Source of the DNA: Mustelus asterias
Taxonomy: Eukaryota
DNA: 35,000 nt
Direction of reading: 5' to 3'
Assembly (NCBI RefSeq): GCF_964213995.1
Contig: NW_027590847.1
Span: forward strand, 124,001-159,000
Position numbers and translations under genes: made by a program. Positions 5,556 through 35,000 of the stretch are shown here, one piece after another; position 1 is the stretch's first letter; each line of letters begins with the position of its first letter. The notes under the pieces are model-generated. The model saw nothing but the letters and a program-made list of their open reading frames with translations. It was not told where the DNA came from and searched no databases.

Positions 5556-5560
5556 ATAAT

Positions 5561-5719: not shown

Positions 5720-5789
5720 CCTCACCGTGTTTGTGTGATCACGGTATCAGGAGTGGGTTCCATTACACATTGATACAGGGAAACATAAA

Positions 5790-11395: not shown

Positions 11396-11544
11396 CTCTC
11401 TACACGTGGGTTGGTAAGTATCAGGTAAGCTGTGTCTTTGTGAGTGAGTGAGTCAGTGTGTGCTTGCATGGAGTTCCAGCTCTGATATTTTAACCCCCCC
11501 TTTCCCAGCACAAAACCCCTGGCCAAGGATCTGTCTCCCCCACC

Positions 11545-12091: not shown

Positions 12092-12904
12092 CCCCCCCTC
12101 CTGGGCTTTGCCCCCCCCTCCTGGGCTTTGCCCCCCCCTCCTGGGCTTTGCCCCCCCCCTCCTGGGCTTTGCCCCCCCCCTCCTGGGCTTTGCCCCCCCC
12201 CTCCTGGGCTTTGCCCCCCCCCTCCTGGGCTTTGCCCCCCCCCTCCTGGGCTTTGCCCCCCCCCTCCTGGGCTTTGCCCCCCCCCTCCTGGGCTTTGCCC
12301 CCCCCCTCCTGGGCTTTGCCCCCCCCCCTCCTGGGCTTTGCCCCCCCCCTCCTGGGCTTTGCCCCCCCCCTCCTGGGCTTTGCCCCCCCCCTCCTGGGCT
12401 TTGCCCCCCCCTCCTGGGCTTTGCCCCCCCCCCTCCTGGGCTTTGCCCCCCCCCCTCCTGGGCTTTGCCCCCCCCCTCCTGGGCTTTGCCCCCCCCCCCC
12501 TCCTGGGCTTTGCCCCCCCCCCTCCTGGGCTTTGCCCCCCCCTCCTGGGCTTTGCCCCCCCCTCCTGGGCTTTGCCCCCCCCTCCTGGGCTTTGCCCCCC
12601 CCTCCTGGGCTTTGCCCCCCCCTCCTGGGCTTTGCCCCCCCCTCCTGGGCTTTGCCCCCCCCTCCTGGGCTTTGCCCCCCTGGGCATTGCCCCCCCCGCT
12701 TGCCCGCCCCCCGCTTGCCCGCCCCCCGCTTGCCCGCCCCCCGACTTCCCGCCCCCCGACTTCCCGCCCCCCGACTTCCCGCCCCCCGACTTCCCGCCCC
12801 CCGACATCCCGCCCCCCGACTGCCCGCCCCCCCTCCTGGGCTTTGCACCCCTGGGCATTGCCCCCCCCGCTTGCCCCCCCCCGCTTGCCCGCCCCCCGCT
12901 TGCC
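12092..12904. repeat. C-rich tandem repeats: ~20-21-bp CTCCTGGGCTTTG(C)n and 15-bp CCCGCTTGCCCGCCC / CCCGACTTCCCGCCC
   Basis: Direct inspection; homopolymer lengths vary; flanked by gaps on both sides. Confidence 0.85.
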
Positions 12905-13601
12905 NNNNNNNNNNNNNNNNNNNNNNNNNNNNNNNNNNNNNNNNNNNNNNNNNNNNNNNNNNNNNNNNNNNNNNNNNNNNNNNNNNNNNNNNNNNNNNNN
13001 NNNNNNNNNNNNNNNNNNNNNNNNNNNNNNNNNNNNNNNNNNNNNNNNNNNNNNNNNNNNNNNNNNNNNNNNNNNNNNNNNNNNNNNNNNNNNNNNNNNN
13101 NNNNNNNNNNNNNNNNNNNNNNNNNNNNNNNNNNNNNNNNNNNNNNNNNNNNNNNNNNNNNNNNNNNNNNNNNNNNNNNNNNNNNNNNNNNNNNNNNNNN
13201 NNNNNNNNNNNNNNNNNNNNNNNNNNNNNNNNNNNNNNNNNNNNNNNNNNNNNNNNNNNNNNNNNNNNNNNNNNNNNNNNNNNNNNNNNNNNNNNNNNNN
13301 NNNNNNNNNNNNNNNNNNNNNNNNNNNNNNNNNNNNNNNNNNNNNNNNNNNNNNNNNNNNNNNNNNNNNNNNNNNNNNNNNNNNNNNNNNNNNNNNNNNN
13401 NNNNNNNNNNNNNNNNNNNNNNNNNNNNNNNNNNNNNNNNNNNNNNNNNNNNNNNNNNNNNNNNNNNNNNNNNNNNNNNNNNNNNNNNNNNNNNNNNNNN
13501 NNNNNNNNNNNNNNNNNNNNNNNNNNNNNNNNNNNNNNNNNNNNNNNNNNNNNNNNNNNNNNNNNNNNNNNNNNNNNNNNNNNNNNNNNNNNNNNNNNNN
13601 N
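12905..13601. other. Assembly gap (N)
   Basis: Run of n. Confidence 0.99.
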
Positions 13602-13767
13602 CCCCCCCCCCCCGCTTGTTCCCCCCCCCGAGCTGTCCCCCCCTCTCAGACCCGCCCTGACCAATTCCTCTGAGACCCTCCAGTCCCACCAGGATTTCAC
13701 CCCCCCTCCCCCCAAATCCCAGCCCTATCCATAGGGGCCCCTCCCCAGCTCCTGAACTCCTGTCCCC

Positions 13768-14070
13768 AAACCCCACCCCCACCGACAGACCCAAACCCCA
13801 CCCCCACCGCCAGACCCAAACCCCACCCCCACCGACAGACCCAAACCCCACCCCCACCGACAGACCCAAACCCCACCCCCACCGACAGACCCGAACCCCA
13901 CCCCCACCGACAGACCCAGCCCCCACCGACAGACCCGAACCCCACACCCACCGACAGACCCGAACCCCACCCCCACCGACAGACCCGAACCCCACCCCCA
14001 CCGACAGACCCGAACCCCACCCCCACCGACAGACCCGAACCCCACACCCACCGACAGACCCAACCCCCAC
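13768..14070. repeat. 25-bp minisatellite CCCCACCCCCACCGACAGACCC(A/G)AA, about 12 copies
   Basis: Direct inspection; G-runs on the minus strand give G-quadruplex potential. Confidence 0.9.
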
Positions 14071-15049
14071 TGAGCCTAATCCCCCCCGACTCCTGAACCC
14101 ACTCCCAATCCTAAACCTGCCGCACTCAATCTCTCACCCCCAAATTCCCCTCTCCCCTCCAGGTTCCCCACCCCCCAAAACCCCCTTTAAATCCCCACTG
14201 CCCAAACCCACTCTCAGTCCCTCCACTTAAACCCCTCTGAACCTCCCCTCTGCCCAATCTCTCTCTGCCCCTCCTCCCGATCCTCTCTGCCCCTCCCCCT
14301 GATCCTCTCTGCCCAATCTTCTCCAATCCCAATTCCCCCCCCCCCCCCCCCCCCCCCACTCCAGCCAAATCTGTTGTCCCTCCTCACAATCCCTCTAAAT
14401 CTCCCGATCCTTCCCTCTGAGCCCCGTACCCCGCTCCCCCACTGCCCAAACCATCTTCAAAGCCCCCCGGCTGAATATCCCTCTAAGTTCCCCTCTTTCC
14501 CCCCACCCCTCTCAACCTGGCAAATTCCCACTCCCTCCCTGTGAACAGCCTCTGGACTGACAGATCCCCCCCCTTCTAATTAGTAACCCCCCCCCCCCCC
14601 CCCCACCACACATCTATCCCCGTCCACCACCCCCCTGTAAACAGCTCCTGGTGGAGTTGGATGTGGAAACTCTGCCCATTTTAAACATTAACGTTCAAAC
14701 GACTAATTCCCCTGACACTGAGCAGCCTGTGTTATAACATCCCGCACCCCCATCCTGTACAACAGACCCCCTGTCTGATTCCCCCCCCCCCCTCAATTGC
14801 CCCCTTTCTCTGATAACCCCTGACTCTGGTCAGCCTGTGTTATAATATTCCCCCCTCTTGTACAACAGCCTCCCCCACCAGCCCCTTCCCTCTCTGTCTA
14901 ATAGCCCCTGGCTCTGAACAAGCCCCTGTATTACACACTCCCCCCTTTCAGCAGTGCTGAATCCCTCTGAATTGCCCCCGATTCCCTCCCTCTGCGTTCC
15001 TGGGCCTTTGCTGCTTGTGAACAGCAAACCCGTGATCTGGCCCGTCCCC

Positions 15050-15810
15050 CACGAGAGAGCAGAGAGGGAGATAAGAGGCAGAGAAGCAGAGAGATATAGA
15101 GATGGAGTTAGAGAGAATGCTACTGTAATTCAGACAGAATGATTCACAGAGAGAGGGAAGCAGAGATCAGATACAGAGAGAGATAAGAGGCAGAGAGATA
15201 TAGAGATGGAGATAGGATGCGACTGTAATTCAGACATTGATTCACAGAGAAGGGAGGGAGCAGAGATAAGAGACAGAGATATAGAGATGGAGTTAGTGAG
15301 GAATCTGCTGTGATTCAGACAATGATTCACAGAGAGAGGGAAGCAGAGAACAGATAGAGATATAGAGACAGAGGATGCTACTTTAATTCAAACAGACTGA
15401 GTCAGGGGGAGGCAGAGATAGAGAGAGGGGGAAGCAGAGAGAGATAGAGAGAGTCAAGCAGATAGCTAGAGAGATAAGACAGAGAAGCAGAGTTAAAGTT
15501 CAAATTTTATTCGTCACAAGTAGGCTTACATTAACACTGCAATGAAGTTACTGTGAAAAGATGGAGATAGAGAGAATGCTGCTGTACTTCAGACAGAATG
15601 AGTCAGAGAGGGAGCAGAGATAGATAGAGCGAGAGAGAGATGGAGAGGAGGCTGCTGTGATTGAGATAAAATGATCCACAGAGAGGGAGAGAGAGATGTG
15701 CAGAGAGGCTGAGATACAAAGTGAGATGTCGAGATAAATAGAAAGTGGGGCTTTGGCAAGACAGTGACAAAGTTTCAGAGAGAGAGTGAAAGATAGAGAG
15801 AATGAGAGAA
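15050..15810. repeat. Degenerate GA-rich ~100-bp tandem repeat with an embedded antisense SINE tail (about 15495-15558)
   Basis: Recurring gagatatagagatggag...ctgtaattcagacagaatgattcacagagagaggg; the insert gtcacaagtaggcttacattaacactgcaatgaagttactgtga is the reverse complement of the SINE tail. Confidence 0.7.
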
Positions 15811-16054
15811 AAGGGAGAAAGATGCTGCCATTTTGAGAGGCTGAGGTATAAAGGATGGGGAGAGACAGGGATTGGAAAGATGTGGAGAAACAGTTCTGAG
15901 GATGGGGGAGTTGCACAGACAGAGCTTCAGGGAGAGGGATTGAAATCTGGGATTACATTGGAGCAGGGATCACTGGGAATACCCCCTCCCCCTGACACAC
16001 AGACCACTAACCCTCCGTGTAAAAGCCCCACCAGTCTATCTGTGAATAAAAATG

Positions 16055-16175
16055 AACGACCAAGACACGGGGACTTTTATTAATATTTTTCTCTCTGGTT
16101 ATAGCTCTTGTCCGAGGATTCCTCACGGCAAAACTATTCGCTCTCTGCATCGCCAAAGTTTCCAAAGGAATTCTC
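16055..16175 (-). other. Diverged copy of the exon-like module, with AATAAA (possible terminal exon)
   Basis: Long pyrimidine tract plus AAG| acceptor (16177-16176); GGAATCCTCGGACAAGAG matches GGAATCCTTGGACAAGGG of the 102-nt modules; AATAAA on the minus strand at 16081-16076. Confidence 0.35.
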
Positions 16176-16959
16176 CTTGGAAGAGAGAAAGAGAAAATAA
16201 AGTGAAATTTGATTAAACACAAAACAAAAGCTGATTATAAACAATAAAAGGCACAGCAAGATCCCAGGACTTGCTGAAATTCACAATCTCACTGGGGGAG
16301 GTGGGGGAAACATTCATTTTCACCTCCTCATTATTAAACCCTGACAAAATGGGAACACGTTTCAAATGCAATGAACTTCCAACTGCCTCCTGACTGTCCC
16401 GATATTGAATTTATTAAACACATCAAAGCATTCTGGGGGCTTTACTCCAGAGACAGGCCAGTGAAAAAACACAGGAGGCCCCAATGAAGTTCCCACTTCT
16501 ATCAGTCACCTCTCTCCCCTCACTCTGTTTCTCCCTCTCCGTCTCTTACACACTTCCCCCCAGATCTCTATCTGTCCAATACCCCGTCTCTGCTCCTGTC
16601 TCTGGATAACCTGTCCTGATCTCTGCTCTGTTTCTCTATCTCGAGGCGAATCTGGATTGAAATGCTCTCTCTAAGTTTCTGTCTGACCGTTTAAAATAAA
16701 ACTCACAATCAAAAGGGAAATGAGAAGGGGGCGGGAGCTGGAAAATCCACAATCCCACCCTGAAGCGGCTGCTTCACATTTTATTGAACCATTGAATTCA
16801 GCCACTTAAACCCTGTTGGGGAATTAAGCGAATGCAAAAGTGCTGCTGAGATTTAGGCCGTGAAGTGAGGCCTAGTCACAGAGGCATTATTCCTCCGGTA
16901 GAAAGAACAAACCCCCCTCTCTCCCACCCCCCAGTTAAACAGAACAATCTTCTCCATCC

Positions 16960-18320
16960 ACACCCACAAATCCCAGCGCCCTGTCTAAAAACACAAGCAG
17001 GACTCTGGGATTGAGAACAAGCCTTTCCCCCAGGCTCAGGAATTTGAATTTCAGCTCCCTCTCCCTCCCGAGTGCTTCACATTGAGAGAGAGAGAGAGAG
17101 ACTGGGAATGCTGCAATCAGGATCCCACAGGGAGTCCCACACTGCAGGAGGACACCCCCCCCACCCCCAGAGCCTCTGTCTCTATCCCCCTACCCCCCCT
17201 CCACTGAGCCCCCCCACACTCCCCACCCATTCTCTGTTCCTCTCTCTCTACCCCACCCTCCTTCCTCTCCATCTTTTCATGTTTAAAGTGTGGGGCGCTG
17301 TCACAGTGCAGGGAATATGGGGCGGGGAGGAGGGCACAGCAAGATCCCACACACAGTCTGAGCAGGGCTAGATACAAAGTGATTTTTAAGTGAGGATTGG
17401 GCTAAAGTGAGTGGGCAATGAGGGAACCACACTTCTCCCTCTCTCTCCCTCGCTCCCCCCCTCCATCTCTTCCCCCACCCCAAATAAAAATAATGACAAG
17501 TCACTCCAGGATTGGGGCTGTTTGTACATTCAATATGAACAGGGAACCTTCCACTTCGAGCACAGTCACACCTCTCTCTCCCATTCCCTCTGTCTCTCGC
17601 TGTTTCTTTCTCTCTGCCTGTTTCTCTGCCTCTATCTCTGAACCTGTCCAGCCCCCTCTGTGTCTCTTTTGCTTTCCCCCCAGATCTATATATATCCAAA
17701 CCCCATCTCTGCGCCGGTCTCTCCTACTCTGGATAATCTGTCCTGATCTCTGCTCTGTTTCCCCGTCTGGGGATGAATGGGGATTAAAATGCTCTCTCTG
17801 ATAAGTTTCTGTCTGACCGTTTCAAATAATGACGTGTTGTGGGCCACGTTTGCTATTTCTCAGTGATTTCCATGGGGAAATGGGGAGGGAAGCTCCTCCT
17901 GCAAAGCCAGATCTCTCTCTCACTGCAATGTGGCAGCAGCCAGATTCCAATATCTTTATATTGGGAAAAAATCTTTTCAAACACAACAGCACAGATTCAG
18001 CCTCAGTCACACAGCCGCTGGTTACAAATCCCACCTTCTGGGAGGGTGTGAGTGAGGGTCTTTTCCCCCAGAGACTGGGGAGCTGGGCTGTGAGTGCAGA
18101 GCAGAGGACCCCCCCCCCCCTAACCCAGCCCCCCTCCAGTGTGTCTCCTCTCCCTGCCCCTCTGCCTTTGATCTCCCTCTGTTACCCTCCCTTTCTCTCT
18201 CCCTCCCTGATAACTCACAATCAAAGGAGAAAGATGGGAGAGAGAGAGATACAGCAGGAAAACCCACAATCACATCCCCAATCCGATGGATTTAAGCGGC
18301 TGCTGCTGGTTTTATTCGGC
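16960..18320. repeat. Segmental duplication A, copy 1 (copy 2 about 20360-22340; partial copies 19700-20070 and 23935-24310)
   Basis: Long near-identical colinear sequence, e.g. cccagcgccctgtctaaaaacacaagcaggactctggg and tttcaaataatgacgtgttgtgggccacg in both copies. Confidence 0.9.
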
Positions 18321-18434
18321 TGCCTTTCTCTCTCTCTCTGTCTTTCTCTCCTTCCCCCCCTCCCTGTCTTTCTCTGTCTCTGTCTGTCTTTCCCTCCCTC
18401 CCTGTCTCTCTCTCTCTCTCTGTCTTTCCCTCCC

Positions 18435-19260
18435 TGAAATTAAATCAAAAAAATTCACATTGGTGTTTTCCTTCACATTTTATTGAAAGATGAAATATAG
18501 ACAGGAATGTCTGGGGAGAGAGAGAGGGGAGGGGTGCAGAGATTGGGAAGAACGCTGGAGAGACAGAGACAGGGAAATTATGAACCCTCCATCCAAATAG
18601 AAATTCCTGGGAAAAGAGAGAGGAGAATCTGGAGTCACAGAGCACAGAAACAGGCCCTTCGGCCCACCAGGTCTATGCTGGCCGTCAAATCCCAATCTAT
18701 ACTCCCCCCATTCCCCAGCACTTGCTGCACAGCCTACGATGCCTCGGTGATTTAAGTGCTTTAATTTACCCGACCCCCGTTTCCACTTTCTTTCCTTTGA
18801 ACCCACTTTGCGGTCCGTGAGCGAGATTTTGTTTAATAAAGTGTGGTCGCTGTTGCAGTGCGAGCAAAGGCCACAGGCCCTGTGTGTGCACAGCAAGATC
18901 CCACAACAACAGCAGCAGCAGCAACAATGTGAACCTGAATCAGATGGGACACAGTCCTCCCCAACACACACCCAACACTCTCGCCTGCTGTGAGCCCCCT
19001 TCCCCACTCACTACCCTGTGTGTGTGTGTGTCTGTGTGTGTGTGTGCGTGCGCCTGTGTGTGTATCTGTCTGTGTGTGTCTCATCCCAAATTTTCAGAAA
19101 GGGTTGAAGTCCCTCTTAAAACGAAGCCAAACCCTTTTTAAAACACAATCTCTGTAGTGCTCTGGAAGATCCCAGAAGGTGCAGTTCGCTGTGTTGTGTG
19201 TTTTAATTTGGGAAATGTTTATACAGAGGGAGAGTGAGGCAGAGAGGGGCTGAGGCTGTA
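18435..19260. repeat. Segmental duplication B, copy 1 (copy 2 about 24315-25100; partial 26620-26760)
   Basis: Colinear shared sequence aattcacattggtgttttc...gcacagaaacaggcccttcggcccacc...aatgtgaacctgaatcagatggg; includes an antisense LINE-tail fragment. Confidence 0.9.
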
Positions 19261-19267
19261 GGGCCAC

Positions 19268-19342
19268 ACAGTGGCACAGTGGTTGGCGCTGCTGCCTCAC
19301 AGCTCCAGGGACCCGGGTTCAATTCCCGGCTCGGGTCACTGT
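19268..19342 (+). mobile_element. 5' (tRNA-like) fragment of an HE1-like SINE
   Basis: gtggcacagtggttggcgctgctgcctcacagctccagggacccgggttcaattcccggctcgggtcactgt. Confidence 0.8.
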
Positions 19343-19570
19343 GATCCTGTGTCTCTTCCCCCACCCCCTCACTGCACCCCCCACAAACCTCACCTCTTGC
19401 TTTCTTTTCCTGTTTTCCCCCTCACTCTCCCCCTCTCTCTCTCCCACTCCCTCCATCTTTCTCTCTCACTCCCTGTCTGCCTTTCTCTCTCTCCGTCCAT
19501 CTTTCTCTCTCTCTCTCCCACTCCCTCCATCTTTCTCTGTCTTTCTCTCTCTCTCCCTCACACTGTTTCT

Positions 19571-19700
19571 NNNNNNNNNNNNNNNNNNNNNNNNNNNNNN
19601 NNNNNNNNNNNNNNNNNNNNNNNNNNNNNNNNNNNNNNNNNNNNNNNNNNNNNNNNNNNNNNNNNNNNNNNNNNNNNNNNNNNNNNNNNNNNNNNNNNNN
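19571..19700. other. Assembly gap (N)
   Basis: Run of n. Confidence 0.99.
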
Positions 19701-21460
19701 CTCTCAGAGACTGGGAATGCTGCAATCAGGATCTCACAGAGAGTCCCACACTGCAGGAGGACACCCCCCACCCCCAGAGCCTCTGTCTCTATCCCGCTAC
19801 ACCCCCCTCCACTGAGCCCCCCCACACTCCCCACCCCTTCTCTGTTCCTCTCTCTACCCCACCCTCCTTCCCCTCCATCTTTTTATGTTTAAAATGTGGG
19901 GCGCTGTCACGGTGCGGGAAATATGAGGAGGGGAGACAGAGCATGAGGGCACAGCAAGATCCCACACACACATTCTGAGCAGGGCCAGATAGATACAAAG
20001 TGATTTTTAAATGAGGATTGGGGTAAAGTGAGTGGGAAATGAGGGAACCACACTTCTCCCTCTCTCTCCCTCCACACGAGAGACCCCCAGATCCTGTGTC
20101 TCTTCCCCCACCCCCTCACTGCACCCCCCACAAACCTCACCTCTTGCTGCCCTTTCCTGCTCTCCCTCACTCTCCCCTCTCTGTCTCTCTCTCCCTTTCT
20201 CTCTCTCCCCCCCTCTCTGTCTCTTTCTCTCTGTCTCTCTGTAATATGGTTATGAAGCTGCATATATAAGGTTAAAGATGTGGTGTTTGAGAAATGTAAA
20301 TATTGAAAAGAAATGCTGAGAAAACCAAAACGAACCATCCAGCGTTGTGTCTTTAGAAAGCCACACCCACAGATCCCAGCGCCCTGTCTAAAAACACAAG
20401 CAGGACTCTGGGATTGAGAACAAGCCTTTCCCCCAGGCTCAGGAATTTGAATTTCAGCTCCCTCTCCCTCCCGAGTGCTTCACAGTGAGAGAGAGAGAGA
20501 CTGGGAATGCTGCAATCAGGATCCCACAGGGAGTCCCACACTGCAGGAGGACACCCCCCCCCCCACCCCCAGAGCCTCTGTCTCTATCCCCCTACCCCCC
20601 TCCACTGAGCCCCCCCACACTCCCCACCCATTCTCTGTTCCTCTCTCTCTACCCCACCCGCCTTCCCCTCCATCTTTTCATGTTTAAAGCATGGGGCTCT
20701 GTCATAGTGTGAGGAATATGGGGCAGGGGGACAGAGCATGAGTGCACAGCAAGATCCCACACACAGCTTGAACAGGGCCAGATACAAAGTGATTTTGAAG
20801 TGAGGATTGGGGTGAAGTGAGTGGGAAATGAGGGAACCACACGTCTCCCTCTCTCTCCCCTCCATCTCTCCCCCACCCCAAATGAAAATAATAAGTCACT
20901 CCAGCATTGGTGCTGTTAGTACATTCGATCTGAACAGGGAACCTTCCACTTCGAGCAGAGTCCCACCTCTCTCTGATTCCCTCTTTCTCTCGCTGTTTCT
21001 CTCTCCCTCTATCTCTGAACCTGTCCAGCCCCCTCTGTGTCTCTTTTGCTTTCCCCCCAGATCTATATATATCCAAACCCCATCTCTGCCCCGGTCTCTC
21101 CTACTCTGGATAATCTGTCCTGATCTCTGCTCTGTTTCTCCGTCTGGGGATGAATGGGGATTAAAATGCTCTCTCTGATAAGTTTCTGTCTGACCGTTTC
21201 AAATAATGACGTGTTGTGGGCCACGTTTGCTATTTCTCAGTGATTTCCATGGGGAAATGGGGAGGGAAGCTCCTCCTGCAAAGCCAGATCTCTCTCTCAC
21301 TGCAATGTGGCAGCAGCCAGATTCCAATATCTTTACAACACATCAAATATGAGGAAAATATATTTTCAAACACAACAGCACAGATTCAGCCTCAGTTACA
21401 CAGTCGCTGTTTCTAAATCCCACCTTCTGGGAGGCTGTGAGTGAGGGTCTTTATCTCAGA

Positions 21461-21598
21461 GTAAAGTATAAAGTAAAGTTTATTTCTTAGTCACAAGTAA
21501 GGCTTACATTAACACTGCAATGAAGTTACTGTGAAATTCTCCTAGTCGCCACACTCTGGTGCCTGTTAATGCACCAGAGTGGGTTAATGCACCGAACC
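21461..21598 (-). mobile_element. 5'-truncated SINE (3' tail), antisense
   Basis: aaagtaaagtttatttcttagtcacaagtaaggcttacattaacactgcaatgaag is the reverse complement of the tail at 32690-32750; absent from the paralogous site at about 18070. Confidence 0.8.
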
Positions 21599-21855
21599 AG
21601 AGACTGGGGAGCTGGGTGGGCTGTGAGTGCACAGCGGAGGCTCCCCCCCCCCCCCCCAGCTAACCCACTCCCCTCCAATCTCTCTCCTCTCCCTGCCCCT
21701 CTGCCTTTGCCCTCTCTCTCTCTCTCTCTCTGTTACCATCCCTTTCTCTCTCTCTCTCTCTCTCTCCCTCCCTGATAACTCACAATCACGGGAGAAAGAT
21801 TGAAGAGAAAGAGATATAGCAGGAAAACCCACAATCACATCCCAAATCCAATGAA

Positions 21856-22306
21856 AGGGTTGACCAGGATGTTGCCTGGTATGGAGGGTATTGGCTGTGA
21901 GGATTGATTGAATAAACTGGGATTGTTCTCCCTGGAAAGACGGAGGCTGAGGGACGACCAGCTGGAAGTTTATAAAATTATGAGGGGTGTGGCGAGGATA
22001 AACAGTTGGGAGCTTTTTCCCAGGACAGAAATGATAATTACAAGGGGAACAAGTTCAAGATAAGGGGGGAAAGGTTGAGTGGAGATGTGCGGGGAAGGTT
22101 TTTACACAGAGGGTGGTGGGGGCCTGGAATGCGCTGCCAAGTGAGGTGGTTGGGGCAGATACATTAGTGACATTTAAGACTTATCTGGATAGACACATGA
22201 ACAAACGGGGTAGAGAGGGATACAGGCCATTGGTCTCGATAGGTAAACATGATCGGCGCAGGCTTGGAGGGCCAAAGGACCTGTTCCTGTGCTGTGCTGT
22301 TCTTTG
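21856..22306 (+). mobile_element. CR1 LINE 3' fragment with tail
   Basis: accaggatgttgcctggtatggaggg...ttacacagagggtggtgggggcctggaatgcgctgcca...ggagggccaaaggacctgttcctgtgctgtgctgttctttg. Confidence 0.88.
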
Positions 22307-23559
22307 TATTAAAGTGTCTGCTGCAGGTTTTATTCGACCGTCGAGTCCCATCGATTTAAACACAGGCACTGTTTGGAAAAGGAGCAAAATGCAAAAGCCT
22401 TCCTGAGGTTAGGCCTGGGATTGAGGCCTGGTCACAGAGGCTGCATTATACATCCTGGACAAAGAACAGGTTCCCCAGGCCCCGGCCAGTTCACCAGAAC
22501 AATCCCCTCCAGCCCCGAAACCTCCCGGACAGGGCCTGGGAGGAGGGAGGGGGGAAAAGGGAACCTGTGCTTCCCCCACCCCCTGTCCCCTTCCACCCTC
22601 CCCTCACACCGCACGCAGCCCCCATTACAGAATCACAGAATCCTACAGTACAGAAGGAGGCCATTCGGCCCATCAGGTCTACACCAACCACATTCCCATC
22701 CAGGCCCCATCCTCATTCCTCCATGTGACTCTCTCTGTCTCCCTGTCTCTCTCTCTCTTTGTGTGACTTTCTCTCTGTCTCTCCCGATCTCTCTCTCCCT
22801 GTCTAATATTGTTATGAAGTTGCGTATATCAGGTTAAAAATGTGGTGTTTGACAAATGTAAATATTGAAAAGAAATGCTGAGAAAACCAAAACGAACCAT
22901 CCAGCGTTGTGTCTTTAGAAAGCCTGTGTCTCTGTGCTGGGGATTTTAAACTGCAGAAAGCAGGCTGCAGAACACAACTTTACAACATTTGTGTCCAAAG
23001 CAGCAGCCAGAGTCCCAGCAGAGCAAAACAGGCTTTGAACTGGACCAATGATTTTAAAACAAGCTCTCAAACGCACACAACCAATTGCATTCAAATTGGG
23101 GCGTTGGTGACAGCCTCAAGCCACTCAAATTGCAGGAATACTGTGAGGAAATTCTGGGTATTTAAACCCGGGACAGGGGGAAATAACGGGGAGGGAGCGA
23201 CCTTGCTGCCTCTTTAGATTGAAGGGGGGAGAGTCTGATACTGAATCCTGCAGTAATATATACAGCTTCATCACATCACCATCTAAATAGAAGCAGAAAC
23301 CAACTCAGAAAGTATTCCAGACCCAAGCAGCAGAAGGAAGTTCACACTTCCAACAGACGCCTGGTTATTCGAGGGTGACTCTATTCTGTAATGATTTATT
23401 TCATTATTCCTGAGTGAGTCTTGTCCTTGGAACAGCATTCTACTGGGGAGTTCATTCAGTTTGTTCATTGTTTTAATAAGGTTGTCACCCAGTCTAAATT
23501 AAAGACCTGTTTGGTTGTTCCTGATGGAGAGAGTGTCAGATCTTGCTTTAATTTACCAA

Positions 23560-23735
23560 TTTCTCCCACAGTCCAAAGCTGTGCGGGTTGGGTGGATTGG
23601 CCGTGTTAAATTGACCCCAGTGTCAGGGGGATTAGCAGGTTAAAAGTGTGGGGTTACGGGAATAGGGCCTGGGTGGGATTGTGGTCGGTACAGACTAGAT
23701 GGGCCGAATGCCCTCCTTCTGCACTGTAGGGATTG
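23560..23735 (+). mobile_element. 3' half of an HE1-like SINE
   Basis: ctcccacagtccaaag...gggcctgggtgggattgtggtcgg...gatgggccgaatgccctccttctgcactgtaggg. Confidence 0.8.
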
Positions 23736-24314
23736 AATGTCTAAAACCAGTCGCTTCCTCCTGTCTCACACACACTTACTTAAGATTACGAGGCGAGGAG
23801 TATCCCTTTAGGGGGTTACAAAATAGCGCAGAGGGAAACATCACCTCAGAGTGGTAACAATATTTATAATCCCACAATCACACACCCACCCTCCCTTAGT
23901 CAATGAATGAATGATTCAAATGACAATGAAGGTAATTCTGCACAGCAAGATCCCACTGCCAGTCCCACAGTGGAGGAGGACACCCCCAGACTCTGTGTCT
24001 CTTTCCCCCTGCCCCTCCTGAGACCCTCTCACACCTCCCCCACCCCCTCTCTGTTTAGCTCTCCCTCCATTTCTCTATCTCTCTCTCTGCCTCCTCCGCC
24101 TCCCCAACCCTTATCCTTCCCCTCAATCTTTCCTGTTTAAAGTTCTGCTCATGGTCACAGTGCGAGGAATAGGGAGCCAGACCCACCTGTGTGCACAGCA
24201 AGATCCCACACACACACAACCTGGTGAGGGCCAGATTAAATAAATGTTGTGGGTGAGGACTGCAGGAGAGTGTGTGGGAAATGGGATCCACTCCTCTCTC
24301 TCTCTCTCTCTCTT

Positions 24315-25100
24315 CCCAAATTAAATTGACAACAATTCACATTGGTGTTTTCTTAAACATTTTATTGAAAGATGAAATATAGACAGGAATGTCTGGGGAG
24401 AGAGAGAGGGGAGGGGAGGGGTGCTGGGATTGGTAAGAACACTGGAGAGACAGAGAAATTCTATACCCCCCCCCCCCATCCAAATAGAAATTCCTGGGAA
24501 AAGAGAGAGAGAAAAGAATCTGGAGTCACACAGCACAGAAACAGGCCCTTCGGCCCACCAGCTCCATGCTGGCCATCAAATCCCAATCTATCCTCCTCCC
24601 ATTCCCCAGCACTTGCTCAAGAGCCTACGATGCCTCGGTGATTAAAGTGCTTGAATTTACCCGACCCCTTTTCAAGCTTTTTCCTTGAACCCACTTTGCG
24701 GTCCCTGAGCCAGATTTTGTTTGAAAATAAAAAGTGTGGGCGCTGTTGCTGTGCAGGCAAAGGCCACAGGCCCAGTGTGTGCACAGCAAGATCCCACAGT
24801 AGCAGCAGCAATGTGAACCTGAATCAGATGGGACACAGTCCTCCCCCCACCCCTCCCCCACTCTCTTGCCTGCTGTGAGCCCCCTTCCCCACTCACTACC
24901 CTGTGTGTGTCTGTGTGTGTGTGTCTGCATCATCCCAAATCTCCAGAAAGGCCGGAACTCCCTCTTAAAAGTAACCCATTTTAAAACTAAAATCCCTGTG
25001 GTGCACAGCAAGATCCCACAAAGTGCAGTCAGCTGTGTTGAGCATTTTTTAAATTTGGGAATTGTTTATACAGAGTGAGGGAGCCAGAGAGGGGCTGAGA
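24315..25100. repeat. Segmental duplication B, copy 2
   Basis: Colinear with 18435-19260. Confidence 0.88.
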
Positions 25101-25869
25101 CAGTGAAATCCCTCTCTCAGGACCCTCAGAATTAAACTGGAGACCCTGTCCCTCACTGAAACCCCCCCTCCCTCTAACAGCCTGTGTCTCTCCCCCTGCA
25201 TCTAACCCACAACTCCAGCTGTTTCCATCCCTCCCTCTTCCTCTCTCTCCCTGCCTCTCTGTCTCCATCTGTTTCTGCTCGAGAAGAGACAGGGAGAGAG
25301 AGAGACGGGGAGAGACAGAGATAAAGCGAGAGAGACAGATATTTGATAATTAATTGTGTATGGTCGCATGATTGAGTGTGGTTTAATTTGGTGATTTTTT
25401 TTATACAGAGAGGCAGAGAGAGAGGTGAAGACAGTGACATTCTCCCCCTGGCACCCTCGCAAGTTCAAAGACACAAAAGCTGCAGACACTCACACACACA
25501 AACTGGGTTTGGTAAGTTTCCCAATCTCTGCAGCTTCCCATGTGGCCCAGGGTTTGAATTGAAATTTAAAAGCAGCTTGGAGAGACTGCAGGATTTTTGA
25601 GTTGAGTTTCTCCCCCCCCCTCACCCTGTAAATATAAAATAGAAATTCCTGGATTAAAATATTCCCTTGGACAGAGCAGAGGGAATGTGTGAGTGGTGTG
25701 TGTGTGTGTCTGAGACCTAGGCTGGATTTGGGAATATCTGCCTGCTGAAGAGGGTCAGTGAAACCATCCTGGCTGAATATCTCATCGCTAAAGAGTCACA
25801 GAGAGAGATATCTGATCAATAAATGTGTTACTGAACCCACTCTGGATGCTCCCTCTATCTCTGTCTTTC

Positions 25870-26170
25870 TCACTAACTTCATTGCAGTGTTAATGTAAGC
25901 CTTGTGACACTAAGAAATAAACTTTAAATCTTTCAACTTTAAAAACTCTCTCTTTCTGTCTCTCTCAGTAACTGCAGCGTTAATGTAAGCCTTACTTGTG
26001 ACACGAATAAACAAACTTTAAAACTTTAAATATCCTCTGTCTCTTTCTGTCTCTTTATCTATGTCTCTGTGTGTCTCTGTCTCTCTCAGTAACTTCATTG
26101 CAGTGTTAATGTAAGCCTTACTTGTGACACTAATAATCAAACTTTAAAACTTTCAACTTTAAAACCTCTG
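25870..26170 (+). repeat. Three tandem copies of a SINE 3' tail
   Basis: aacttcattgcagtgttaatgtaagcc..ttgtgacac...aaactttaaa repeated at about 25875, 25968 and 26090. Confidence 0.8.
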
Positions 26171-27290
26171 TCTGTGTGTCTCTGTCTCAATTCAGACACT
26201 AGTTCAGTGCCAGGTTGAGAGGGGGTCAGTATTGAGCAGAGTGGGAGGCAGTTTGATACAAAGTTTGCAGAAACTGCAGCGAGTGTTTGTAAACATGTTG
26301 GGGTTGTGGAAAGGTCAGTGTGTAACAAGCTGAGGGAAGGTGTTTCCACTTCACATGTGGCTACTTTTTGACAGAGTTACCTTTGCATCTACAGGGAGCT
26401 CTGAAGCCTCATGGCTTTCTGCCTGCCTCTGTTTGAACAGTTTAATATGTTTCAGCACTGAGACCTCTGGCCCTTGTTGGGAATATCAGTCTCCCAGAAT
26501 ACCAGTATACCTGACTGCCCACCTCCCCGCCCGCCAACCCCAGCCCCCAACCCTGTGTGTGTGTTGTCCCAAGTCTGGAGACTTCCCCACAGTCCCCTGA
26601 AAGGTTTAAACTGCCTCTGAGAAAACACCCCTTTTTAAAACAAAATCCCCAGCAAGATCCCACAAGGTGCAGTCAGCTGTGTTGAGTGTTTTGTAATTTG
26701 GGAAAAGTTTATACAGAGAGAGAGAGAGAGTGAGGCAGAGAGGGGCTGAGACAGTGAAATCAAACCCCCCCGGGACACCCAGAATGAAAATTACACAGCA
26801 CAAAATCCCAGGATTGCCCCTTTCCAGGTTTTACTGAGAGATTGTCCAACTAAATATTAATTCCTGGGAAAAAGAGGGAGAGAGAGAGAATAAAGAGAGG
26901 CAGAGAGAGGAAGGAAATGGAGAGAAAAGCAGAGAGAAATAGACAGAATGGGGGAAAAGCTGTGGAGAGGATGAAATGAAAATCTGAACATCTGTAAACT
27001 GAATTGTAAAGGCCTCTGTGAATTTTATTCAACAATTAGGTTCATTGCTCTGTCTCCGACCCCTGTTATTTTAGATTTAAAGCAAACTTATAGACAGTTT
27101 CATACATAATTTACTCTGCCACCCACCAAAGGGTTAACGTGTTTGCGACTAATTGCAAAGCCGGGATATTTTAACCCCAGGGTTTCAAACTCCAGCCCCC
27201 CACACCCCACAATCAACCAGAACTGGTTCATCCGAGGAAGCGAGATTAAAATTAAACCTGGATCAGGTTAATAAAGAGACGACAACTCAC

Positions 27291-27392
27291 ATGCGGCCTA
27301 TAGAACAGGCTTCAGTCCATCCATCCTCCTCTGGAGAAAAGCCCCTTGTCCAAGGATTCCGAGTCCCGTTGCAGTCTTCAAAATTCAAATCC
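27291..27392 (-). CDS. Candidate 102-nt symmetric (phase 2-2) exon, copy A
   Basis: ttttctcttctccccag| ... |gtgagt; the only open frame gives DLNFEDCNGTRNPWTRGFSPEEDGWTEACSIGR. Confidence 0.5.
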
Positions 27393-28204
27393 CTGGGGAG
27401 AAGAGAAAATAATTAATTAAAATACAAGAAAATGTTTAAATTAAATTGCACGAGAGCCCAGGATTCCCCCTTCTCAGTTACACAATCTCTCAGTAAAATC
27501 TAAATATTAATTCTTGGGGAAAAGGGAGAGAAAATAATTAAAGTACCAGAAAATATTTAAATTAAATAGCACAAGAGCCCAGGATTCCCCTTCTCAGATT
27601 TTACTGAGAGATTGTCTAACTAGATATGAATTCTTGGGGAAAAGAGAGAGAAAATTAATTAAATACAAGAAACCATTTGAATTAAATCTCACCGAAACGC
27701 AGGATTCCCCCTTCTCAGTTACACAATCTCTCAGAAACATCAGAATGGCATGAACAGAGAGAGAGAAATCTACAAACAGAATCTCCTAAAACTGAATTCA
27801 AATATCCAGAACCCCCCAGTCCATCCCTGTCTCCCTCTCAGACTCCAGGAGCTGCTCATCTCCCTCTTTCAGTTTGGGAAGGGGCTGCTGATTCCTTCGG
27901 GACACTTTTTAAAATCGCCCTCCCGGGATTGATTTCTACAACTCCCTCCATCTCCCTTTCACTATCTCCCTCTCTTTTCTCCCTCTGCTCCTGTCTCTCT
28001 TACTCAGTGTAAAGATGGATGTTCCTGTCTGGATCCTTGTCCCTGTCCCCTCTCTTTCTCACTCGTTGTCTCTGTCCATAGCTGTTTCTTTCCCTCTCTC
28101 TCATGTACTCTGCATTGAAATGAGCGATGCCATATTCCTGTCTCCCTGTTTACAATAACACAGTTTTTGTTGATTAAAGGTTTAAAGAGACACAAAGGAA
28201 GATG

Positions 28205-28440
28205 GAGCCAGAGAGAGACATTCTGGAGAGTGATAGACAGATATGGAAGAATGCTCGAGAGAGAGAGAGAGAGAGACATTCTGGAGAGTGATGGACAGAT
28301 ATGGAAGAACGCTCGAGAGAGAGAGAGAGAGAGACATTCTGGAGAGTGATAGACAGATATGGAAGAATGCTCGAGAGGGAGAGAGAGACATTCTGGTGAG
28401 TGATGGACAGATATGGAAGAATGCTCGAGAGGGAGAGATG
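28205..28440. repeat. ~54-58-bp tandem repeat (gagagacattctggagagtgatagacagatatggaagaatgctc), 4 copies
   Basis: Direct inspection. Confidence 0.9.
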
Positions 28441-28884
28441 AATGGAAAGAAACAGGAAGGGAGAGAAAGCTGAAGATAGGGGAAAAATACTGGAGAGAGA
28501 GACAGAGAGAAAAGCAGAGCGAAATAGAATGGGGAAGAAAGTGCAGAGGGGAAGATAAATGTAAAGGCTGAACTTCAGAAAATTGAATTGTAATGTCCTC
28601 TGTGAATCTTATTTAACATTCGGGTAAATCACTCTCTCCCACCCCTGTTATTTTGGATTTGCATCAAACTTTTAGACAGTTTCATATTACAGATATTTAA
28701 TTTACTCTTTGCCACCCAGCAAAGGGTTAACCTGTTTGTGACTAATTGCAAAGCCGGGATATTTTAACCCCAGGGTTTTAAACTCCACCCCACCCCATCC
28801 CACAATCGAACCAGAACTGGTTCGTCCAAGAGAGCGAGATTACAATTAAACCTGGATCAGGGTAATAAAGAGACGACAACTCAC

Positions 28885-28986
28885 TTGAAGCCTATAGAAC
28901 AGGCCTCAGTCCATCCATCCTCCTCTGGAGAAAAGCCCCTTGTCCAAGGATTCTGAGTCACATTGCAGTCTTCAAAATTCAAATTC
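28885..28986 (-). CDS. Candidate 102-nt symmetric exon, copy B
   Basis: Same splice sites; NLNFEDCNVTQNPWTRGFSPEEDGWTEACSIGF. Confidence 0.5.
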
Positions 28987-29562
28987 CTGGGGAGAAGAGA
29001 AAATAATTAATTAAAATACAAGAAAATGTTTAGCACAAGAGCTAAGATTTCACTGAGAGATTGTCCAACTAAATATTAATTCCTTGGGAAGAGATCGAAT
29101 ATAATTAATTTAAATACAAGAAAATGTTTAAATTTAATACACAAGAGCCCAGGATTCCCCTTTCTCAGTTACACAATCTCTCAGTAAAATCTAAATGTTA
29201 ATTCTTGGGTAAAAGAGAGAGAAATATATTAAAATACCAGAAAATGTTTAAATTAAATAGCACAAGAGCCCAAGATTCCCCCTTCTCAGATTTTACTGAC
29301 AGATTGTCCAACAAAATATTATTTCCTGGGAAAAAGAGGGAGAGAGAGAGGGAATAAAAAAGAGAGACAGATAGAGGAAGGAAAGGGATGGAGAGAGAGA
29401 AAGCAGAGAGGAAATAGACAGAATGGGGGAAAAGCTGCAGAGAGGACGAAATGAAATTTTGAACTTCTGAAAACTGAATTGTAAAGGCCTCTGTGAATTT
29501 TATTCAACAATTAGGAACAGCGGTCTGTCTCCCATCCCTGTAATAAAGAGACGATGACTCAC

Positions 29563-29664
29563 ATGCGGCCTATAGAACAGGCCTCAGTCCATCCATCCTC
29601 CTCTGGAGAAAAGCCCCTTGTCCAAGGATTCCGAGTCATGTTGCAGTCTTCAAAATTCAAATTC
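29563..29664 (-). CDS. Candidate 102-nt symmetric exon, copy C
   Basis: Same splice sites; NLNFEDCNMTRNPWTRGFSPEEDGWTEACSIGR. Confidence 0.5.
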
Positions 29665-29963
29665 CTGGGGAGAAGAGAAAATAATTAATTAAAGTACAAG
29701 AAAATGTTTAAATTAAATAGCACAAGAGCCCAGGATTCCCCCTTCTAAGATTTCACTGAGAGATTGTTTAACTAAATATGAATTCCTTGGGAAGAGATAG
29801 AATGTAATTAATTTAAATACAAGAAAATGTTGAAATTAAATAGCACAAGAGACCAGGATTCCCCTTTCTCAGTTACACAATCTCTCAGTAAAATCTAAAT
29901 ATTAATTCTTGGGTAAAAGAGAGAGAAATATATTAAAATACCAGAAAATGTTTAAATTAAATA

Positions 29964-30306
29964 GCACGGTAGCACAGTGGTTAGCACTGCTGCTTCACAG
30001 CTCCAGGGACCTGGGTTCGATTCCCGGCTTGGGTCACTGTCTGTGTGGAGTTTGCACATTCTCCTCGTGCTTGCGTGGGTTTCCTCCGGGTGCTCCGGTT
30101 TCCTCCCACAGTCCAAAGATGTGCGGGTTAGGTTGATTGGCCATGCTAAAACTGCCCCTTAGTGTCCTGGGATGCGTAGATTAGAGGGATTAGCGGGTAA
30201 AATATGTAGGGATATGGGGGTAGGGCCTGGGTGGGATTGTGGTCGGTGCAGACTCGATGGGCCGAATGGCCTCTTTCTGTACTGTAGGGTTTCTATGATT
30301 TCTATG
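29964..30306 (+). mobile_element. Near full-length HE1-like SINE
   Basis: A box TAGCACAGTGG, B box GGTTCGATTCC, CR1-like tail ending (tttctatga)2. Confidence 0.9.
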
Positions 30307-30825
30307 AAGAGCCCAGGATTCCCCGTTCTCAGATTTTACTGAGAGATTGTCCAACAAAATATGACTTCCTGGGAAAAAGAGGGAGAGAGAGGGAATAAAA
30401 AAGAGAGACAGATAGAGGAAGGAAAGGGAGAGAAAGAGAGAGAGAAAGCAGAGAGAAATAGACAGAATGGCGGAAAAGCTGCAGAGAGGACACAATGAAA
30501 GTCTGAACATCTGAAAACTGAATTATAAAGGCCTCTATGAATTTTATTCAACAATTAGGAACAGCGCTCTGTCTCCCATCCCTGTTATCTTGGATTTAAA
30601 ACTAACTTTGAGACAGCTTCATATTACAGACATTTAATTTACTCTCTGCCACCCAGCAAAGGGTTAACCTGTTTCTGACTAACTGCAAAGCCGGGATATT
30701 TTAACCCCAGGGTTTCAAACTCCAGCTGCCCCCCCACACCCCACAATCGAACCAGAACTGGTTCATCCGAGGAAGCGAGATTAAAATTAAACCTGGATCA
30801 GGGGAATAAAGAGACGACAACTCAC

Positions 30826-30927
30826 TTGCGGCCTATAGAACAGGCTTCAGTCCATCCATCCTCCTCTGGAGAAAAGCCCCTTGTCCAAGGATTCCGAGTC
30901 ACATTGCAGTCTTCAAAATTCAAATTC
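30826..30927 (-). CDS. Candidate 102-nt symmetric exon, copy D
   Basis: Same splice sites; NLNFEDCNVTRNPWTRGFSPEEDGWTEACSIGR. Confidence 0.5.
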
Positions 30928-31318
30928 CTGGGGAGAAGAGAAAATAATAAATTAAAATACAAGAATTCTTTAAATTAAATAGCACAAGAGGCCAGGATTC
31001 CCCCTTCTCAGTTACACAATCTCTCAGTAAAATCTAAATATTAATTCTTGGGGAAAGAGAGAGAAAATAATTAAAATACAAGAAAATATTTAAATTACAT
31101 AGCACAGCAAAAAACCCAGGATCTCCCCTCAGTTACACAATCTCTCAGTAACACCCAAACACAACAAGTCAGTTGTAAAGCAGAGACTAAAGAGATTGAG
31201 ACAGTTCCCTCCCTGTGTGTTTCTCTCTCTCTCTCTCTATTCCACTCTCATTCAGATCTCGCTCCCTCTGATATGAAACATTAAATCTGGATCAGGTTAA
31301 TAAACAGACACAACTCAC

Positions 31319-31443
31319 TCGGGATGAAGCCTGAGCAACAGGCCTCAGTCAGCCCTCCCTCTGGAAGAAGCTCCTCTCCCTCGTCCTGGTCACAAATATT
31401 CCCGTCCTTTGGATCCTCGACACATCCCCAGTTTTCAAAATTC
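31319..31443 (-). other. Diverged 125-nt copy (E) of the exon-like module
   Basis: Pyrimidine tract plus weak GAG| acceptor and |gtgagttg donor. The homologous frame NFENWGCVEDPKDGNICDQDEGEELLPEGGLTEACCSGFIP is open but ends in phase 1. Confidence 0.4.
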
Positions 31444-32456
31444 CTCAGGAGAAAAAGAGATAAAAATTGGTTAAAAAGAGAGAGAAAAAGAGACAAGGCC
31501 ATTTTAACAATAAGACACACAACATATCACAGCGAGGAGTCCAGCATTTCCATTCAAGTCCATTCAGCATCATGTCCACACAAGCAAAGCACAGGTAAAA
31601 ACGCAGATTGAGACACACACACACACACTGAATCAGAGTGGGAATGTTTTCAGTGCAGGGGGATTATTGGTGTGGAGACTGAAGGCTCTCAGATTCACAT
31701 TTATCCTGAGTGTGCTGGATGCAAACCCCACCCTGAGTCTCTGACATGTCTGCAATGTCTGTCTCTCTATTGAGATGCTAATTCACCCCCCCTCCCCCTC
31801 TCACCCCAGAGGAGTTTGTGGCAATGTCAGACTGACTATTGATATGTTAATGCAGGGAGGCAATGGATTCTGCAATCTCCTGCCTTTAGTTTCTTTAGTT
31901 TAGTTTCAAACTTTATTTCTTTTCCCCCGTAGGTCGTGTTCGTCCATTTCAAAAGCCCCCTGACCCCCGCACAGCAGCCCCAAAAATCCTTGCAGCCGCT
32001 CCCCACAACCCAGCGAGTGGAGGGGGAATGGGGATGTGTGAGTGAGTGGATTGGGGGGATTGTGTCAGTGTGTGTCTGTCTATCCCCCCCTCTCTGCTCA
32101 CACTTCCTGCCCAGCCTGCTGAAGACAGGGAAAGAATGGGAGTTGAACAAAGCCTCCTCTCTGCCTCCATTTTCAAAGGATTTGCCCCTTTCTCACACCA
32201 GTTTTGTCCATTGAGCTGTCCCTGTCAATTGGAAAAAAGTTTTATTTATCTCGCTGTGAGATATGAAGTCACTAATTACTAAATACAGGCAAAAACATCC
32301 CATTATGAGACACGGAGGTTCAATGGGATTTTAAACTGAAATCCTCGGATGTCAATTCCTTAGGTTAAAAGTTTCTAATTCATTAATTTGAATTAAATTA
32401 AAACCGGCCAGTATATTCTCACCAGCTGCTTTCTGTTAACTCTCCCCCTTATCACC

Positions 32457-32752
32457 GGTGGTTAGCACTGCTGCCTCACAGCGCCAGGGACCCGGGTTTG
32501 ATTCCCGGCTTGGGTCACTGTCTGTGCGGAGTCTGCACGTTCTCCCCGTGTCTGCGTGGGTTTCCTCCGGGTGCTCCGGTTTCCTCCCACAGTCTGAAAG
32601 ACGTGCTGGTTAGGGTGCATTGGCCGTGCTAAATTCTCCCTCAGTGTAACCCGAACAGGCACCGGAGTGTGGTGACTCGGGGATTCTCACAGTAACTTCA
32701 TTGCAGTGTTAATGTAAACCTACTTGTGACACTCGTAAATAAACTGAAACTT
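32457..32752 (+). mobile_element. tRNA-derived SINE (same subfamily as 4320-4625)
   Basis: gtggttagcactgctgcctcacagcgccagggacccgggtttgattccc...ttcattgcagtgttaatgtaaacctacttgtgacac. Confidence 0.88.
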
Positions 32753-32779
32753 AACACTCCTGAACTCTCCCGCCAGCAC

Positions 32780-35000
32780 TCACTCACTGTTGTACACTTA
32801 CTCAGTCTCACACACATTACACACATACTCACTTTTACACACTCCCTCTTGCACACTTGCTCACACACACACTCACTCTCATAAACACTCGCTTTAACAC
32901 ACTCTCATCAACACACACATGAATACTCCCTCACACACACTCACATTCACTCACTTGCACGCACACACACTCTCTGTCTCTCACACACTCTCTCTGTCTC
33001 TCACACACTCTCTCTGTCTCTCACACACTTTCTGTCTCTCTCACACACACTCTCTGTCTCTCTCACACACACTCTCTGTCTCGCTCACACACACTCTGTC
33101 TCGCTCACACACACTCTGTCTCTCACACACTCTGTCTCTCACACACTCTGTCTCTCACACACTCTGTCTCTCACACACTCTGTCTCTCACACACTCTGTC
33201 TCTCACACACTCTCTGTCTCTCACACTCTCTGTCTCTCACACACTCTGTCTCTCACACACACACTCTGTCTCTCACACACACAGTCTGTCTCTCAAACAC
33301 ACAGTCTGTCTCTCACACACACTCTCTGTCTCGCTCACACACTCTCTGTCTCTCTCACACACACTCTCTGTCTCGCTCACACACACTCTCTGTCTCTCTC
33401 ACACACTCTCTGTCTCGCTCACACACTCTCTGTCTCTCTCACACACACTCTCTGTCTCTCACACACACACTCTCTGTCTCTCACACACACTCTGTCTCAC
33501 ACACACTCTGTCTCTCACACACACTCTCTGTCTCTCTCACATACACTCTCTGTCGCTCACACACACTCTCTGTCTCGCTCACACACACTCTCTGTCTCGC
33601 TCACACACACTCTCTGTCTCGCTCACACACACTCTCTGTCTCTCACACACACACTCTCTGTCTCACACACACTCTCTGTCTCACACACACTCTCTGTCTC
33701 ACACACACTCTCTGTCTCACACACACTCTCTGTCTCTCACACACTCTCTGTCTCTCACACACTCTCTGTCTCTCACACACACTCTCTGTCGCTCACACAC
33801 ACTATCTGTCTCGCTCACACACTCTCTGTCTCGCTCACACACTCTCTGTCTCGCTCACACACACTCTGTCTCTCACACACACACTCTGTCTCTCACACAC
33901 ACTCTCTGTCTCTCACACACACTCTCTGTCTCTCACACACACTCTCTGTCTCTCACACACACTCTCTGTCTCTCACACACACTCTCTGTCTCTCACACAC
34001 ACTCTCTGTCTCTCACACACACTCTCTGTCTCTCACACACACTCTCTGTCTCTCACACACACTCTCTGTCTCTCACACACACTCTCTGTCTCGCTCACGC
34101 ACACTCTCTGTCTCTCTCACACACACTCTGTCTCTCACACACACTCTCTGTCTCTCACACACACTCTCTGTCTCGCTCACACTCTCTGTCTCTCACACAC
34201 ACTCTCTGTCTCTCACACACACTCTCTGTCTCGCTCACGCACACTCTGTCTCTCTCACACTCACTCTCTGTCTCTCACGCACACTATCTGTCTCGCTCAC
34301 ACAAACTCTCTGTCTCGCTCACACAAACTCTCTGTCTCGCTCACACACTCTCTGTCTCGCTCACACACTCTGTCTCTCTCACACACACTCTCTGTCTCTC
34401 ACACACACTCTCTGTCTCTCACACACACTCTCTGTCTCTCACACACACTCTCTGTCTCTCACACACACTCTCTGTCTCTCACACACACTCTCTGTCTCTC
34501 ACACACACTCTCTGTCTCTCACACACACTCTCTGTCTCTCACACACACTCTCTGTCTCGCTCACACACACTCTGTCTCGCTCACACACACTCTGTCTCGC
34601 TCACACACTCTCTGTCTCGCTCACACACTCTCTGTCTCGCTCACACACACTCTGTCTCGCTCACACACACTCTGTCTCGCTCACACACACTCTGTCTCGC
34701 TCACACACACTCTGTCTCGCTCACACACACTCTGTCTCGCTCACACACACTCTGTCTCGCTCACACACACTCTGTCTCGCTCACACACACTCTGTCTCGC
34801 TCACACACACTCTGTCTCGCTCACACACACTCTGTCTCGCTCACACACACTCTGTCTCGCTCACACACACTCTGTCTCGCTCACACACACTCTGTCTCGC
34901 TCACACACACTCTGTCTCGCTCACACACACTCTCTGTCTCTCTCACACACACACTCTCTGTCTCTCACACACACACACTCTCTGTCTCTCACACACACTC
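32780..35000. repeat. Compound (TC)n(AC)n satellite, 16-22-bp units such as TCTGTCTCGCTCACACACAC
   Basis: Direct inspection; continues to the window end. Confidence 0.97.

Follow-up and report, generated by a model that had tools for sequence, protein, structure and literature searches.

The window, meaning the whole 35,000-nt stretch of Mustelus asterias DNA analysed here, is the end of contig C815 in a genome of 3.68 Gb, and its own end coincides with the contig end. Inspection of splice sites and reading frame located four exon-like units of 102 nt on its minus strand, designated module D (30826–30927), module C (29563–29664), module B (28885–28986) and module A (27291–27392). Each features an acceptor formed by a pyrimidine tract ending in CCCCAG and a GTGAGT donor, and phase 2-2 is the only open frame, which confirms the initial annotation on these points. 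The copies differ from each other at 4–8 sites, with seven replacement changes (N/D, V/M, V/G, R/Q, K/M and two in R/F) and two silent ones. The consensus peptide that had been proposed describes the unit overall, but module A starts with D rather than N, and the first R is replaced by Q in module B. The deletion reported just past the donor of module C is present in its downstream flank, beginning at +21, but comprises about 220 nt and not 250. A diverged paralogue, E (31319–31443, minus strand), is 125 nt long with phase 2-1, a weak GAG acceptor and a GTGAGT donor, and as previously stated it does not join the others in frame.

The modules are embedded in sub-repeats of about 120 nt that copy the acceptor region (26800–31160, minus strand). 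These occur in two types, distinguished by a 22-nt micro-inversion, and contribute acceptor-like sites at 31046, 30368, 29907, 29785, 29325, 27632, 27512 and 26863, none of which has a donor of its own; each module unit of about 0.9 kb thus holds up to three additional donorless acceptor copies, some of which outscore the module acceptor. The inverted 22-mer was considered as a functional stem (z −2.5) and rejected as a by-product of the micro-inversion, being missing around module D. A dispersed short repeat, which we take to be a SINE as the initial annotation did, lies between modules C and D and antisense to them (29964–30307, plus strand). Directly after the downstream flank of module B comes a segment (27756–28516) that in older units of this family is found beyond an antisense GPR139-like exon; here the two meet near 28516–28586 with no receptor exon between them. 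A 14-nt motif occurs ten times, always on the module strand, within old internal duplications (16254–26663, minus strand), and a diverged acceptor paralogue followed by AATAAA (16076–16175, minus strand) is a candidate terminal exon. The only receptor match in the window is a separate pseudogene fragment at 3655–3976. Two V-set exons are located at 962–1288, with a recombination signal, and at 2502–2729, some 24 kb from the modules.

The modules are repeats far beyond chance, but the initial annotation missed their spread over the genome. A genome-wide census gave 1,297 exact 21-mer matches to the module core, and genome similarity searches returned 1,445–1,640 module candidates. The repeated unit extends well past the modules: a multicopy core (15250–33000) is kept in most copies and was counted with markers near both ends (528 candidates at 32.1–32.4 kb and 487 at 16.0–16.2 kb), and a variable extension (3655–15250), in which copies end at staggered points, gave 329 candidates with a marker at 10.7–11.1 kb. 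About 1,500 module copies ride in about 500 copies of this block, each at least 17–25 kb and roughly 20 kb in length. In nine loci with long flanks, 10–25 kb is common with the window, mostly at 90–99% identity and with internal rearrangements; contig C678 (198 kb) carries three block copies in both orientations, and two are found in the 110 kb examined of contig C405. Among 60 loci, three modules are present in 49, two in seven, one in three and six in one, at a spacing of about 0.9 kb. The upstream end of the block in the window is a GT/GA microsatellite (32960–35000), beyond which other copies continue into further simple repeat or into a satellite with units of about 69 bp, whereas at the far end 19 copies terminate at staggered points. 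Most copies sit on small scaffolds, and large contigs hold three among the first 100 matches listed. The block stretches examined contained no gene ORF, their long ORFs being LINE-type, V, zinc-finger or low-information frames, and no transposase-like ORF; Rfam models found no family over 285 kb, and a tRNA scan of 29 loci found none.

Two samples of modules from the young family were assembled, both seeded by similarity or intact-frame searches. The first contained 155 hits (139 full modules, 13 at locus edges and three without the acceptor half) and the second 175 (170 full, five at edges). All 309 full modules in these similarity- or intact-frame-seeded samples are 102 nt long, bounded by CAG and GT, and free of stops and indels, where about 1.6 stops would be expected (P0 ≈ 0.2). 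Exons of one phase with an open frame are what a repeat protein would be built from, and modules A–D and the 309 all have this form. Purifying selection on the amino acids, also expected of such a protein, was not seen: the 309 paralogous modules carry 28 replacement and 8 silent alleles (ω 0.98–1.31, close to 1). The number of Cys residues is variable, with 78 of the 309 copies gaining a third and two losing one; the N-glycosylation sequon is present in every copy, though few sites are involved. Counted genome-wide, no copies have stops at five sites, compared with 12 that have missense changes at five matched sites, these being copies and not independent events. This count is the best single point for coding, yet few events lie behind it. 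Variable sites among paralogues are fewer in the exon (29 of 102) than in the flank (76 of 177; p = 0.02), with neither rare nor common alleles significant when taken separately, and among positional copies the module bins are as variable as neighbouring bins (5–7 sites per 100). In a less-selected set of 18 young modules, 11 are intact, three have a 2-nt deletion, three are without the acceptor and one carries an interrupting insertion. In 9 of 139 modules the intron has lost about 220 nt.

Older relatives came to light in the 21-mer census, as two modules on the large contig C25 that are 85% identical to the young type; a search with one of these returned an amplified sister family. The resulting set, from C25, the sister family and six further loci, comprised 49 module hits, of which one at an edge was left out and 48 were used, 18 of these being the young modules just described. 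In all 28 sister-type modules codon 7 is TGA and the frame is shifted internally; 25 of them are again 102 nt long, and three are without the AG. The two C25-type modules are 105 nt long with stops in all frames. In-frame stops are therefore found in all 30 of these older modules (28 of 28 and 2 of 2), with the exon-like shape kept, and when the two older types were translated all three frames were closed in both. Exon length across the three lineages is 102, 102 and 105 nt. Old and young copies are 86–89% identical over the exon, compared with 85% over the flank, and a 42-nt core is the same in a young copy as in the C25 copy, which is 85% identical to it. A lone match on contig C5, considered as a processed copy, is an unspliced 175-nt fragment, which rules this out. 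The comparison indicates that the exon-like shape persists over the older lineages and the peptide does not. The initial annotation had named homologous copies that gain stops and frameshifts at the neutral rate, or lose the AG/GT sites, as evidence that would refute its model, and in large part this is what the 30 older modules and the 7 broken copies among the 18 young ones show; a frame kept in homologues is thus not observed.

The older units also show a different setting for the module. In three of five (C72, C154 and C25) an exon of a receptor lies on the opposite strand, 2–5 kb past the single module; it spans 232–299 codons, matches Pfam 7tm_1 and has GPR139 (7VUG) as its nearest solved structure. 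No exon 1 was found upstream of these three receptor exons, and in the other two units no receptor exon was found within 10 kb. The older single-module units are collinear with the window on either side of the receptor exon, and beyond it the match continues through 28516–27756, 26695–26550, 24893–24729 and 18067. The young family has tandem modules, mostly three (1–6), spaced at about 0.9 kb and without the receptor exon, and no receptor remnant was found at the equivalent place in any young block fetched. From this collinearity, the block probably derives from a receptor locus, and the unrooted comparison suggests that the direction of change was loss of the receptor exon.

The upstream ATG and signal-peptide exon that the initial annotation had called for were sought by a splice-site scan over 9.5–33.2 kb using rough matrices, and no start or signal-peptide exon joining in phase 2 was found there; E is out of phase. 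Splicing to the next acceptor leads to a stop after one codon from module A, after 12 from module D and after one from module C, and the exons at 24493 and 18606 shift frame among 28 copies. An in-frame internal ATG is present in the majority subfamily. For a check at the RNA level, 24000–29950 was compared with assembled contigs from four runs, three of them presumed to be RNA and the fourth of unrecorded type; these contigs covered modules A–C, D and E being outside this interval. No module-to-module joint occurs among the 15 joints listed of 93. Continuation from exon into intron is seen in contigs of runs X1 and X3 and in one from X2; one X2 contig lies on most of module B, and its 27 unplaced letters on the acceptor side could represent a junction or a flank that has diverged. 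Coverage by run X19 extends over all 30 bins. Folding of introns (z −0.75) and exons (z +0.99) was no better than that of shuffled sequences, and the search for pre-miRNAs in module introns yielded no convincing or strong hairpin, only sub-threshold simple-repeat hairpins. The alternative named in the initial annotation, splicing of the modules into a long non-coding RNA, is possible.

Searches for a known identity returned little. For the peptide, phmmer against 1.84 billion representatives produced a lone eel tandem-repeat translation that sums 17 weak stretches and was rejected; word-index search, Pfam and the ESM Atlas gave no match, a weak negative because a control V exon found only one protein. 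In metagenomes the core 21-mer matched once, in unrelated sequence, and no viral contig matched it. The modules were also considered as 5′ UTR exons of zinc-finger genes and this was rejected, as there is one C2H2 array in 963 kb and the similarity to 25 zinc-finger loci is solely repeat-derived. No description of this block was seen among the papers listed in literature searches.

The initial annotation placed the array upstream of a TCR V cluster on the same strand. V matches lie next to the block in the window, on C1957 and C558 and at 3 of 20 end loci; there were none in C678 (198 kb), C405 (110 kb), C240, C37, C46, C60, C124 or C178, so that most long block stretches are without one. Since V matches are missing from the C678 and C405 stretches and 24 kb separates the V exons from the modules in the window, the association with TCR genes is incidental and belongs to a subfamily rather than to the module.

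Taken together, the modules are probably non-coding exon-like DNA within a young segmental-duplication block of about 500 copies, their intact appearance likely reflecting mainly recent copying. The absence of stops from 309 modules and from the five sites genome-wide leaves some room for a newly opened frame. A protein is unlikely to be encoded, and the modules are likely at most exons of a non-coding RNA. The growth by exon duplication described initially is supported as tandem duplication of an exon-like unit but not as the growth of a protein, because ω is close to 1, Cys number varies, a start exon is not found, the older relatives all have stops and 7 of 18 young copies are broken. The model of an extracellular, N-glycosylated two-Cys repeat protein tied to the TCR locus, which draws on the symmetric phase and on a sequon that is universal at few sites, is already largely refuted by these same results and by the lack of a signal exon or of TCR association in most long stretches; we give it almost no credence. 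A de novo micropeptide of about 95 residues, made of 34-residue repeats, initiated at the internal ATG and terminated shortly after entry into the next acceptor exon, would explain the 309 open frames and the contrast between stop and missense copies, and the majority subfamily does have the ATG, but neutral ω, variable Cys number, broken young copies, disruption of the frame by upstream ATGs and by E, and older relatives without the frame make it quite improbable. The product in that model would be cytosolic, hence the sequon would be unused.

A functional multicopy long non-coding RNA gene resembling FIRRE or the C19MC host gene, with efficiently spliced modules under selection at the RNA level and perhaps acting on the GPR139-like family or hosting a small RNA, is a stronger version of the reading preferred here. 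It is consistent with the invariant CAG/GT boundaries, the identical 42-nt core, the lower number of variable sites in the exon than in the flank, candidate terminal exons with AATAAA, the uniform strand of the 14-mer and the mapping of contigs from the three runs guessed as RNA. We consider it unlikely, given contigs that run from exon into intron with no joint between modules among the 15 listed of 93, the Rfam and hairpin results, folding at the level of shuffled sequences, tolerated loss of intron sequence and the stronger competing acceptors. A giant non-autonomous transposon, for example of rolling-circle type with captured fragments, could account for many copies in both orientations, one variable end and richness in micro- and minisatellites. 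Elements of the TIR, LTR or Helitron classes have defined termini and a mobilising ORF of their own, whereas the 19 staggered copies show no fixed terminus at the end examined, the other end lies within simple repeats, no transposase-like ORF was found and copies are almost solely on small satellite-rich scaffolds; this origin is very improbable. There is a small chance that a gene at birth is being observed, in which a non-coding exon antisense to the receptor lost the receptor exon, gained the 34-codon frame, was repeated in tandem and then amplified about 500-fold, its present product being a repeat micropeptide or a spliced regulatory RNA.

If the modules are non-coding passengers of a duplicated block, as we prefer, a deletion would have removed the receptor exon. 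Unequal crossing-over may then have multiplied the acceptor first, as the 120-nt sub-repeats, and the module next, and small indels together with stop loss in the young lineage would have opened the 34-codon frame incidentally. Spread of the block may have occurred by DNA duplication among satellite-rich scaffolds, with the staggered ends as its trace. If the block is transcribed, splicing could join the modules in a non-coding RNA, and this RNA may go back to a transcript that ran antisense to the receptor gene.

About 500 copies of 17–25 kb amount to roughly 10 Mb in the unplaced part of the genome, and to our knowledge this is the largest core-duplicon-like family in a vertebrate. Among its neighbours are genes of the TCR V, zinc-finger and receptor families, of which some are duplicated together with it; the block can drive copy-number change in these families and will mislead gene prediction. 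With the protein reading set aside, the finding still offers a large duplicated block whose history can be traced, and if the modules prove to be spliced or translated they would be a well-replicated example of the birth of a long non-coding RNA or of a de novo gene, for which the same genome supplies non-coding outgroups.

Several known systems invite comparison. The older form of the block overlaps an exon of the shark GPR139-like receptor family on the opposite strand, whereas in the young block that exon is absent from this position and the modules lie outside the receptor frame. The C19MC host gene has repeated 123-nt exons with splice sites and no ORF, each flanking a pre-miRNA, at one locus (PMC2691840). 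The modules are likewise repeated ORF-less exon-like units of similar size, but no pre-miRNA or snoRNA was found in their introns and they form short arrays over hundreds of loci. The local repeats RRD of FIRRE occur at a single locus, and their function has been tested (PMC4820808); the modules resemble them as repeated units in a candidate long non-coding transcript, but are genome-wide and known here from sequence. The part consulted of a segmental-duplication survey of 117 species, including three cartilaginous fishes, does not mention the block (PMC13431229). In organisation the block resembles primate core duplicons such as NPIP/Morpheus and NBPF/Olduvai, which are cores common to many duplication blocks with variable flanks, both clustered and dispersed, NBPF having tandem repeat units inside the core (PMC6920530). 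The block shares with them a common core and variable flanks; unlike the primate duplicons it has no protein-coding gene found in its core, and it exists in about 500 copies where they number in the tens.

Two V-set exons lie on the minus strand beside the block, at positions 962-1288 and 2502-2729 of the window. The former is open, with a recombination signal after it; the latter passes into a G-rich minisatellite. Because related V exons adjoin the block in contigs C558 and C1957 and at three further loci, the V genes appear to have been duplicated together with one subfamily of the block. The variable end of the block contains a 56-bp minisatellite (5762-8309) with a palindrome near it (5561-5654). 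Another G-rich minisatellite, 5 kb long, is found in contig C124 (L063-L064, about 1,060,300-1,066,500), where, immediately downstream of a block copy, it takes the place of the beginning of a zinc-finger exon of the C2H2 type. In the window's own contig, C815 (L089-L097), and in C678 (L069-L088), two different non-coding units of about 4 kb recur many times between block copies, within satellite and simple repeats.

Inside the block, a 14-nt motif occurs 10 times between 16254 and 26663, throughout on the minus strand, which is that of the modules, and all 24 of its occurrences in C678 are likewise within the block and co-oriented. A 17-nt form of the motif is found 7,117 times genome-wide, in some cases inside a dispersed repeat, and reaches higher density toward the ends of contig C1. 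Four TATA-like (TGTATAAA) modules on the minus strand (26715, 25407, 25072 and 19225) lie in old internal duplications and are followed downstream by donor-like sites and by acceptor-plus-AATAAA sites; they may represent small transcription units. Between 27400 and 31160, the acceptor sub-repeats are of two types distinguished by a 22-nt micro-inversion, which allows adjacent units to pair in a stem of 28 bp that encloses an acceptor-like site.

The minus strand at 3655-3976 carries a pseudogene fragment of the GPR139-like type, interrupted by an in-frame stop. It is 98% identical to a fragment of this kind in locus L250, at the place where the block copy of that locus ends. A 42-kb tandem duplication in contig C25 (L267-L274, 52.05-52.13 Mb) contains the old form of the module together with an open GPR139-like exon; its far end carries long ORFs of the LTR-element or provirus type. 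The single modules of the sister family (L283-L310) are mostly 102 nt again, though their internal indels differ, and exon length across the three lineages is 102, 102 and 105 nt.
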